This document shows, piece after piece, positions 33,914 to 36,244 of a stretch of DNA of 64,000 nucleotides. The stretch is from NCBI GenBank assembly GCA_963839245.1, contig CAWIUJ010000002.1:125795-189794 (forward strand). Direction: 5' to 3'. The notes beneath the pieces are model-generated. The model had not been told where the DNA came from. It searched no databases and was given only the letters and a program-made list of their open reading frames with translations. Position 1 is the stretch's first letter; each line of letters starts with the position of its first letter. The stretch comes from an uncultured Alphaproteobacteria bacterium. Its GTDB lineage: Bacteria > Pseudomonadota > Alphaproteobacteria > Rhizobiales > Methyloligellaceae. The translations under genes were made by a program, and so were the position numbers.

Positions 33914-34066
33914 CCTCATGGTTCGAGACGCGCCCTTGGGGGCACTCCTCACCATGAGGATCTACCGCAGCGCTATGAGGCGCTAAATCCTCATCCTGAG
34001 CAGGCGCGGAACGCGCCGTCTCGAAGGATCGGTGAGGAGCGGACGAAGTCCGCGTCTCGAACCATG
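33914..34066. repeat. Cluster of three Rhizobiales-type REP-like elements
   Basis: CCTCATGGTTCGAGACGCG...CTCCTCACCATGAGG, then CCTCATCCTGAGCAGGCGCGGAACGCGCCGTCTCGAAGGA and GTGAGGAGCGGACGAAGTCCGCGTCTCGAACCA; same family as 63576-63620. Confidence 0.75.
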
Positions 34067-34096: not shown

Positions 34097-34134
34097 AAAA
34101 AGACTTGGGCACAAGCTGCGACGCTTGTGCCCAA
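34097..34134 (-). terminator. Rho-independent terminator of the small peptide gene
   Basis: 12-bp perfect stem TTGGGCACAAGC / GCTTGTGCCCAA with 6-nt loop, followed on the minus strand by GTCTTTTT. Confidence 0.75.
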
Positions 34135-34172
34135 ATAGGAAAGGGGAAGAGGTTGGTCGTGACGACCATCAA

Positions 34173-34277
34173 TTATGGCTGAGTGCCGATGTGGAAGTAG
34201 GCGTTCGGGAAGTTCTGGGCCATGGCGGGCGCGGCGAAGGTGACGACCAAGGCGACGGCGAGGATGAGCTTCTTCAT
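34173..34277 (-). CDS. 34-aa secreted micropeptide precursor MKKLILAVALVVTFAAPAMA-QNFPNAYFHIGTQP
   Basis: Below the ORF-track cutoff. Strong RBS AAGGAGATACACC-ATG, host-like GC3 codons, Sec-type signal peptide ending AMA, own terminator. Confidence 0.8.
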   Translation of the reverse strand: MKKLILAVALVVTFAAPAMAQNFPNAYFHIGTQP

Positions 34278-34595
34278 GGTGTATCTCCTTTAAGGGTGCA
34301 GGCTGGTTGATCCGAGTTTCGACCGGTTGGCCATTGCGCCGATCGACATCAGTTAGGTGGTCGTGGGGTCCGCTTTTGCCCAATAGCGCGCGGCTATGAG
34401 TTCGGTGCTTTTGGCGTTCGGCGGAGGAGCTTAGATAGGAGGAAGCGAATGACTATCACCGGCGGGTCACCAAATCTTCACTCGCCATTCGTCCCGGAAG
34501 GGCGCACGCTTAATCTCATCACCGGCCAGCAGCCACAGGCGCCGGTGGCTGAGAGAGTTGCCTCGCGCTCCCGCCTGCAAATAGCGGAGGGAGCT

Positions 34596-34832
34596 ATGGG
34601 CTCTTCCAGATCAATTTCCAGTCATTGTGACTCTAAAACTCTCGCGGCAATCAACCTTGCATTCGAAGGGGCTTGGAATGTTCTCGAGACGCGCGACCTC
34701 CTTGCGCGCTTCGCGAACAATTGTGAACTGCAAGCAGAGCTCGGTCAGCGGCTGGTGGTTCTTGCTTCGGACGGCACGACCGATGCGGAGGAGTTGCGGC
34801 GTCAAGTTCTGGCGAGCTTCCCGCTGGCGTAA
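34596..34832 (+). CDS. Small hypothetical protein (paralog of 36002-36244)
   Basis: GGAGGGAG RBS; AFEGAWNVL...ELGQRLVVLASDGTTDAEELRRQVL. Confidence 0.65.
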   Translation: MGSSRSISSHCDSKTLAAINLAFEGAWNVLETRDLLARFANNCELQAELGQRLVVLASDGTTDAEELRRQVLASFPLA

Positions 34833-36001: not shown

Positions 36002-36244
36002 ATGGCCTCTCAGCATCCTGTCGGTGACCATGGCGATCCAACGCTGTTCACCTTGGAACAAGCGTTTTACGACGTTTGGACCGTCCTAGCGGCACACGAA
36101 CCCAATCGGGATCTCACCGAAGACCATGAACGTAAAGTGGAGCTTGGTCGGACACTCATGGTGCTGGCTGCGAACGGGGTGAGGGATCTCGCCGAGTTGC
36201 GTAGATTGGGCCTTAAGAGCTTGTCTCTCCCCCCGTGTCATTGA
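36002..36244 (+). CDS. Small hypothetical protein (paralog of 34596-34832)
   Basis: AAGGAG upstream; AFYDVWTVL...ELGRTLMVLAANGVRDLAELRRLGL. Confidence 0.65.
   Translation: MASQHPVGDHGDPTLFTLEQAFYDVWTVLAAHEPNRDLTEDHERKVELGRTLMVLAANGVRDLAELRRLGLKSLSLPPCH

Follow-up and report, generated by a model that had tools for sequence, protein, structure and literature searches.

The micropeptide gene in the window

The window, a stretch of 64,000 nucleotides from an uncultured alphaproteobacterium, carries on its minus strand an open reading frame of 34 codons with a Shine-Dalgarno sequence and a terminator of its own (Table 1). An earlier note on this DNA had described a complete miniature unit, composed of the reading frame, an AAGGAG ribosome binding site, a stop codon and a terminator with a 12-bp stem, and all of these parts were found as described. 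The terminator stem consists of 12 perfect pairs (34105-34116 with 34123-34134), or 14 pairs by scan, followed by CTTTTT. The gene was also said to be missed by the ORF track, which does not hold for public gene callers: an exact look-up retrieved the window peptide and nine of its relatives from public protein sets (NCBI, JGI, ENA), where they are listed as 'hypothetical protein'.

Table 1. Features of the micropeptide unit in the window, and the gene for its 70-aa secreted relative
Feature	Position	Strand	Remarks
Operator-like palindrome ATAGC-N5-GCTAT	34383-34397	minus	Conserved in the alignment; adjoins -35-like TTGGGC (34378-34383)
C(T)ACCTAAC block, candidate -10 region	34352-34360	minus	Conserved in 28 upstream regions
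5'UTR hairpin P1, GGCC in loop	34315-34350	minus	Covariance model R1
Shine-Dalgarno sequence AAGGAG	34285-34290	minus	Read directly; 7 nt 5' of ATG
Open reading frame, 34 codons	34277-34173	minus	ATG at 34277, TAA at 34175-34173; product MKKLILAVALVVTFAAPAMAQNFPNAYFHIGTQP
Codons 1-20, Sec-type signal peptide MKKLILAVALVVTFAAPAMA	34218-34277	minus	Export and cleavage predicted
Codons 21-34, predicted mature peptide QNFPNAYFHIGTQP	34176-34217	minus	14 aa
Stop codon TAA	34173-34175	minus
3'UTR hairpin H1 (UGGUCG-UCA-CGACCA)	34154-34168	minus	Helix 1 of model R2
C/U-rich linker CCUCUUCCCCUUUCCU, anti-Shine-Dalgarno-like	34137-34152	minus	Putative function
Intrinsic terminator, 14-bp stem, 6-nt loop, CUUUUU	34097-34136	minus	Helix 2 of model R2
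p70 gene (70-aa secreted relative)	L021 2737-2949 (G000 C6) and relatives		3' of the main micropeptide array

The neighbours of the unit are two phasin genes and genes for proteins without a Pfam match, and a phasin gene is transcribed towards the unit. Near the window copy, neither a maturase nor a receptor domain was found, in agreement with the earlier statement that no receptor or modifying enzyme is adjacent. A palindromic element of approximately 150 bp (33917-34066) separates the phasin gene from the terminator of the micropeptide unit. Inverted repeats of 21 nt form its ends (CATGGTTCGAGACGCGCCCTT / AAGTCCGCGTCTCGAACCATG), and a further inverted pair of 24 nt lies inside them. The element appears REP- or MITE-like, since the genome has 8 copies of its 16-mer CATGGTTCGAGACGCG, spread over 7 contigs. 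The window also encodes, on the plus strand, a pair of small paralogues of 127 aa (34449-34832) and 80 aa (36002-36244), neither of which has a Pfam match. They share 36% identity over 77 residues (E 3e-12), and the gene of one of them is divergent from the micropeptide gene.

A peptide family of the genus Methyloceanibacter

The gene had been presented as stand-alone, but it is one of 3 cassette copies in its own genome and a member of a genus-wide multigene family. Short homologues, which the earlier note had proposed to look for, were found across the genus: a six-frame search of 41 related genomes matched the first 27-31 residues at 55-79% identity, at several places in the own genome and in the majority of genomes of the genus, where two or three frequently lie in tandem. 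Read out, the matched places are intact reading frames of 30-36 codons, each with an AGGAG-type Shine-Dalgarno sequence, which in all family members lies 6-9 nt 5' of the ATG. A back-translated DNA pattern identified 18 further loci in species-representative genomes. The named records among these belong to Methyloceanibacter or to unclassified Alphaproteobacteria or Hyphomicrobiales MAGs, and a contig of the cultured strain M. superfactus R-67175 was found to have a family member by the same pattern. The family comprises at least 52 distinct peptides of 27-36 aa and is confined to Methyloceanibacter. Among 301 genomes of the order, the family HMM yielded full-length matches within the genus only, with matches at the level of the signal peptide alone elsewhere; the window peptide itself scores 67 bits (E 4.9e-18).

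A profile search of 1.84 billion representative proteins yielded 139 matches, nearly all of them of 29-60 aa or longer calls with the match at the C-terminus, which suggests that in the longer calls the start had been placed too far upstream. A few longer matches resemble frameshifted reads, and two very long 'homologues' (P0198 and P0296) were discarded as chance matches to a repeat. Much longer homologues had been named as a sign of a premature stop; the homologues are 27-36 aa long, and the search revealed no truly longer ones except for a family of 70-aa secreted paralogues, here called p70. The 90% cluster of the window peptide holds ten variants, all of 34 aa and most of them ending in GTRP. 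Searches of Pfam and NCBIfam with the window peptide, two paralogues and the 70-aa relative returned only sub-threshold matches to signal peptides. Literature searches retrieved no paper on small proteins of Methyloceanibacter, and among the papers listed on small proteins in general no title or abstract dealt with the genus or the family; by these searches, the family of predicted exported micropeptides restricted to Methyloceanibacter is previously undescribed.

The first 20 residues of the 52 peptides follow the pattern MK[KQ]-hydrophobic-AAP-A-x-A, with M1, K2, L10, A16, P17, A18 and A20 invariant. The mature part starts with x-[N/G/Q/D/T]-F-x-[N/Q/S]-x-[Y/F], in which F23 is invariant, and continues into one of three types of tail. 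The commonest (33 aa in total) ends in ..T-T-[M/L]-G-R, a second (35 aa) in ..C-x-x-C-[R/K], and a third is short, such as SQH, NQN, TSR or, in the window copy, GTQP. The predicted mature peptides of the family include QNFPNAYFHIGT[QR]P and ENFSNPYATTMSR.

Three intact micropeptide units are present in the own genome, and other genomes often have tandem arrays. The gene order at the main locus is conserved through the genus: an MFS transporter gene and a gene for a secreted cupin, one to three divergent micropeptide genes, the p70 gene and, beyond it, genes for a membrane protein of 129 aa and a secreted protein of 163 aa. Within the genus, the cupin and MFS genes are always divergent to the main array. 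No such peptide gene adjoins any of the cupin homologues that are widespread outside the genus, and cupin and micropeptide may thus be associated for historical and not for functional reasons. The window copy belongs to a second type of locus, which is syntenic in at least 4 other genomes (L048, L029, L049, L005/L026), and the third unit is located on contig 12. No conserved partner was found at the other micropeptide loci, and no partner gene conserved beyond the genus.

A degenerate fourth copy (G000 C2:191007-191171, plus strand; L023) lies 1.2 kb past the window end; it has the same signal peptide and a frame of 54 codons (ANFTKAIAG...) that runs through the terminator hairpin, its match to the 5' hairpin is weak (E 0.79), and it is probably a decaying paralogue. 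The sole PF05114 MNIO gene of the genome (C12:281169-281948) is located 156 kb from the nearest micropeptide unit, in a canonical bufferin-type operon (C12:280.6-282.7 kb; L131) that encodes a Cys-rich signal-peptide precursor, the MNIO protein (PF05114, E 9e-117) and a DUF2063-like partner. A second family of micro-genes was observed approximately 1.4-2.8 kb 3' of cupin paralogues (L063, L065-L080, L109, L115). It encodes lipoprotein-like prepeptides of 37-40 aa with the pattern MRTIVALAVIAASLALGG-C-FHH.QQ.Y..ELPP...K, a lipobox and a mature part of approximately 20 residues.

The p70 proteins are secreted, rich in Met, His and Cys, 67-70 aa long and restricted to Methyloceanibacter (alignment A3), with no Pfam or NCBIfam match. 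They have a signal peptide and an E-Q-F.. start, as well as a main-locus position and a genus restriction, in common with the micropeptides, but are twice as long. Their sequence reads E-Q-F-Y-V-A-F-D-P-A-S-H-K-C..M-M-H..M-K-S-M-G..K-A-M..M-K-E-C, and its body (..HKC..MMH..MKSMG..EAEA.KAM..MKEC), with two conserved Cys and several Met and His, is absent from the micropeptides. The first 34 residues are homologous to the micropeptides (hhalign probability 97.8%, E 1.2e-12), and the two therefore have a common origin. The composition of p70 hints at a periplasmic metal or redox role.

The coding sequence of the micropeptides is under purifying selection. For codons 1-26 of 39 distinct coding sequences, the entropy by codon position was 14.8/6.0/21.7 and dN/dS was 0.24. 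The 35-aa syntenic ortholog at L048 (...YLHAAGTRP) departs from the window copy by four synonymous changes, a few tail replacements and 3 nt inserted in frame. Since most genomes of the genus contain the unit with its reading frame, Shine-Dalgarno sequence and stop codon intact, and given the codon-position entropy and dN/dS, the window gene is confirmed as real, far beyond chance, and it is very probably translated. Despite the shared origin with the 70-aa protein, the short form is a stable, selected state. In the 33-aa type, dN/dS was 0.17 for the signal part versus 0.40 for the mature part; a signal part more conserved than the mature part is unusual if the mature peptide alone matters.

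Judged by established rules only, the micropeptides bear the signature of a signal peptidase I substrate: two Lys precede a hydrophobic core, a helix-breaking Pro occupies -4, both -3 and -1 are Ala, and Pro never stands at +1. The window product, with MKK, a hydrophobic region of 13 residues, P-4/A-3/A-1 and a tail of 14 aa, has a textbook Sec/SPase-I-type signal and agrees with the signal peptide and 14-aa mature peptide of the earlier note. The invariant P17, A18 and A20 are consistent with the -3/-1 rule, and position +1 holds Q, E, D or G apart from single cases of V and A. The A-x-A/Pro pattern is unchanged across 52 sequences, which suggests that cleavage is likely to matter, and the peptide is probably exported and cleaved. 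The suggestion of an N-terminal Gln that could cyclise to pyroglutamate does not extend to the family, because of the variation at +1.

Conserved untranslated regions

The 5' and 3' untranslated parts of the unit are as conserved as the reading frame when the window copy is compared with L048, a point that the earlier note had not made. An alignment of 28 upstream regions revealed that a region of approximately 110 nt is common to the first gene of every unit. It holds a palindrome, in the family form ATAGC-N5-G[C/G]TAT, which adjoins TTGGGCAA, and the C(T)ACCTAAC block, which we infer to be the -10 region; a promoter scan of the window unit returned no canonical sigma-70 match. The palindrome would be the binding site of a transcription factor. 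LysR-type genes are located 6-11 kb from the main locus, and no factor could be linked to the site. The palindrome followed by TGG occurs 4 times in the 3.57-Mb genome, with 2 of the occurrences at micropeptide units. The others (G000 C6:123168 and C12:431329) are located 5' of a gene for an AhpC/TSA-like thiol peroxidase, which adjoins a LysR regulator and a pirin, and 5' of a cytochrome b and molybdopterin oxidoreductase pair. Judging by the motif, both could share a regulator with the micropeptide units.

The 5' hairpin P1 was defined by hand and then tested by the covariance model R1; RNAalifold on a plain MAFFT alignment of the 5'UTRs had found only a GGCC:GGCC pairing, without covariation. 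R1 has 3 strong matches in the 3.57-Mb genome, exactly at the three units, and a weak match at the degenerate fourth copy. In the 33 loci of relatives that were searched, it yielded 28 matches, each beside a family reading frame, and the three matches with a peptide not yet listed were read and found to be intact. In the P1 alignment, 82.9% of the cells are paired, as compared to 16-49% with a slid partner, and pair 5:35 is CG in 18 and UA in 9 sequences. The covariation score was reached by 0/500 shuffles. For R1 as well as for R2 below, such figures support the helices and do not prove them, since the sequences share descent and also served in part to define the structures.

The GGCC in the P1 loop is followed approximately 30 nt downstream by a second invariant GGCC. 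This was found to be changed in the window (34301-34310; CCAGCC versus CCGGCC), and is kept in L048 and in all other aligned units but two divergent ones. The single-base change might weaken the regulation of the window copy, which could be drifting, given this loss and its GTQP end, as compared to GTRP in its relatives.

At the 3' end, the units of the family carry a hairpin (GUGGYC...GRCCAC), a C/U-rich run (CCUCCCUCCC-like) and a GGGCAC...GUGCCC terminator. The pyrimidine-rich run between the hairpin and the terminator is of the CCUCC type and is kept in nearly all units while the flanking sequence diverges. A regular-expression scan of the genome for a pyrimidine run and a hairpin was too permissive, with 588 matches, and was replaced by the covariance model R2, which matches the genome exactly 3 times, all at micropeptide units. 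Over both helices of R2, 91.4% of the cells pair and 28 cells change on both sides, and the score was reached by 0/500 shuffles. Helix 1 is 84.8% paired, with one pair changed from UA to CG in 5 sequences, and helix 2 is 95.7% paired, with 4 pairs that change on both sides. No Rfam match was obtained in 4 kb around the window unit or for the untranslated regions at 8 loci.

The window unit thus combines the MKK..AAPAxA signal and the x-N-F-x-N-x-Y start that define the family with a flanking 5' hairpin (R1, 39 bits) and 3' module (R2, 60.6 bits). If the C(T)ACCTAAC block is the -10 region, a hairpin near the 5' end and two 3' hairpins would make a stable small mRNA. For the 251-nt window transcript, the linker pairs with the Shine-Dalgarno sequence of the gene itself in the MFE fold, a pairing that is absent in the centroid fold, and the whole-transcript z-score is -1.5.

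Interpretation and comparison with known systems

The analysis establishes a real gene that is subject to purifying selection, its membership in a family restricted to one genus, the conservation of its cassette and covariation in its RNA helices. We assign a probability of roughly 60% to the reading that the unit works as a gene cassette within a multigene family specific to Methyloceanibacter, from which an exported micropeptide is produced by a structured mini-transcript. From the sequences we infer transcription, export, the cleavage site, the periplasmic location, a binding partner and a physiological role, in the following way. A promoter regulated through the operator-like ATAGC-N5-GCTAT site would give a transcript of approximately 250 nt, starting near the conserved 5' hairpin and ending with a hairpin, the C/U-rich linker and the intrinsic terminator, a layout that would suit a stable and well-translated small mRNA. 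The strong Shine-Dalgarno sequence would direct translation of the 34-aa prepeptide, and its MKK, 13-residue hydrophobic core and AAP-A-M-A would take it to the Sec translocon. Signal peptidase I would then cut after Ala20 and release the 14-residue QNFPNAYFHIGTQP into the periplasm, where x-N-F-x-N-x-Y is the likely partner-binding part; the tail differs among the paralogues (..GR, C-x-x-C-R/K, short here). The family would have derived from the N-terminus of the 70-aa secreted protein of the main locus or to share ancestry with it. An unmodified periplasmic peptide of 1.5 kDa would be expected to turn over quickly. A signalling role is possible. The earlier suggestion of an antimicrobial is unlikely from the composition: the mature peptides are short, polar and near-neutral, and therefore do not suggest a membrane-active agent. 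For the C-x-x-C paralogues and the relative rich in Met, His and Cys, one could conceive of a metal or redox role, but not for the Cys-free window copy.

The conservation of the RNA leads to the main alternative or complement, somewhat unlikely in our estimation, in which the transcript is dual-function or mainly a regulatory RNA. The 3' module would act as a riboregulator, in trans on the Shine-Dalgarno regions of other mRNAs, like the CcsR/cuckoo RNAs, or in cis on its own. The reading frame would then play a lesser part, such as drawing the RNA to the membrane or setting how stable it is. [quoted passage not shown] However, the reading frame is under purifying selection at the amino-acid level, with variation at third positions, which argues that the peptide matters; the motif lies in a linker and not in hairpin loops, the Rfam ar14/CcsR models did not match, the pairing is missing from the centroid fold at a transcript z-score of only -1.5, and no targets were identified. 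Many bacterial proteins of less than 50 aa are single-pass membrane modulators, and the product could accordingly stay uncleaved in the inner membrane as an N-in/C-out modulator of 34 aa, like MgrB, AcrZ or CydX. The N-terminal hydrophobic part, with its lower dN/dS, is the most conserved part of the peptide and would agree with this. Such a protein is nevertheless unlikely: the hydrophobic core before the invariant Pro, at 13 residues, is too short to hold a peptide stably in the membrane, the A-x-A, the Pro at -4 and the non-Pro at +1 required by signal peptidase I would serve no purpose in an anchor, and in the related 70-aa family this segment is evidently a signal peptide.

A precursor of a RiPP metallophore (bufferin-like) or of another modified peptide, with maturation enzymes encoded elsewhere, such as the divergent secreted cupin, is very unlikely, even though a conserved leader precedes a variable core, tandem arrays of the genes occur, some paralogues end in C-x-x-C-R/K, the cupin and MFS genes keep their divergent position and bufferin precursors can have Sec signals (PMC11626156). 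The window peptide has no Cys and no adjacent maturase, the sole MNIO gene is accompanied by a Cys-rich precursor and a DUF2063 partner of its own at a distance from the units, and the cupin homologues outside the genus lack an adjoining peptide gene. Least probable is a functionless sequence, either a truncated remnant of a 70-aa gene in decay or a spurious reading frame. The homology to the first 34 residues of the 70-aa family, the fourth copy that reads through its terminator and the GGCC lost in the window copy would be in line with decay, but a form of 27-36 aa is kept in dozens of genomes with its own motif, Shine-Dalgarno sequence, stop codon and UTR modules and a dN/dS below 1.

The exported micropeptide encoded by a structured transcript, which we prefer, may be extended in two speculative directions, both of them quite doubtful: a bifunctional small mRNA of a previously undescribed kind, which would be drawn to the membrane during translation of its exported peptide and carry a 3' anti-Shine-Dalgarno riboregulator, or a repertoire for peptide signalling in the periplasm of a Gram-negative methylotroph. 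If the mRNA is bifunctional, secretion of the peptide would be tied to the post-transcriptional regulation of further genes, perhaps those of the envelope. If the peptides are signals, the x-N-F-x-N-x-Y head would be a receptor epitope and the tails of the paralogues specificity codes.

Exported peptides of 10-16 residues are well-known signals of Gram-positive bacteria, and to our knowledge gene-encoded, Sec-exported peptides of this size are hardly documented in Gram-negative bacteria. The micropeptides resemble the Rap-Phr systems (RRNPP, Bacillota) in the tiny gene, the Sec signal with a very short C-terminal peptide and the multiple diverged paralogues per genome. The likeness to Phr-type pheromones that had been drawn from the window is weakened by the absence of the defining adjacent receptor, here a TPR receptor or phosphatase gene. 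In Rap-Phr systems, the peptide is taken up again through Opp and binds a receptor inside the cell. There is also no sequence similarity, the alphaproteobacterial host is Gram-negative, so that the peptide would reach the periplasm, and the conserved structured untranslated regions of the micropeptide units have no counterpart in Rap-Phr. Type I toxin peptides (Hok/Ldr/Ibs-like) are uncleaved hydrophobic transmembrane peptides with tightly repressed translation and an antisense RNA; its strong, exposed Shine-Dalgarno sequence, invariant A-x-A site and short hydrophobic region make the micropeptide less likely to be one of them. PqqA has E-x-x-x-Y, a pqq operon and no signal peptide; the micropeptide has E/Q-x5-Y, a signal peptide and no pqq neighbours.

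Bufferin precursors (BufA), which give rise to MNIO-modified RiPP metallophores in Proteobacteria, are short and have a genuine Sec signal peptide (PMC11626156). The short precursor with a Sec signal is thus a shared trait, as is, for some micropeptide paralogues, the C-x-x-C tail. In contrast, the window peptide has neither a Cys core of the DUF2282 or EGKCG type nor a Pfam match, no MNIO (PF05114) or DUF2063 genes are adjacent to its unit, and the bufferin operon of the genome has its own precursor.

The ccaF1-CcsR locus of Rhodobacter sphaeroides produces sRNAs with CCUCCUCCC anti-Shine-Dalgarno loops, which are processed out of the 3'UTR of an mRNA for a small protein (PMC8034643). There as here, an alphaproteobacterial small-protein gene is followed in the same transcript by a C/U-rich anti-Shine-Dalgarno motif with hairpins, and the loci are duplicated. 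The micropeptide units differ from the CcsR/cuckoo (ar14) RNAs in having one copy of the motif in a linker, rather than CCUCCUCCC in two hairpin loops, and a predicted exported micropeptide without a DUF1127 match, rather than a cytoplasmic DUF1127 RNA-binding protein (CIN1 context); no Rfam ar14/CcsR match was obtained for them at E<=1 or E<=5. The resemblance thus lies in the logic alone. What distinguishes the units is that a strongly conserved family of one genus, with several types of paralogues, is set in a conserved RNA frame of operator, 5' hairpin and anti-Shine-Dalgarno-like 3' module. If the RNA ends are not regulatory, the micropeptides are one of many lineage-specific families of small proteins; if they are, the units would provide a second, sequence-unrelated example of the logic seen at CcaF1-CcsR, where one transcript carries both a small protein and a riboregulator in its 3'UTR.
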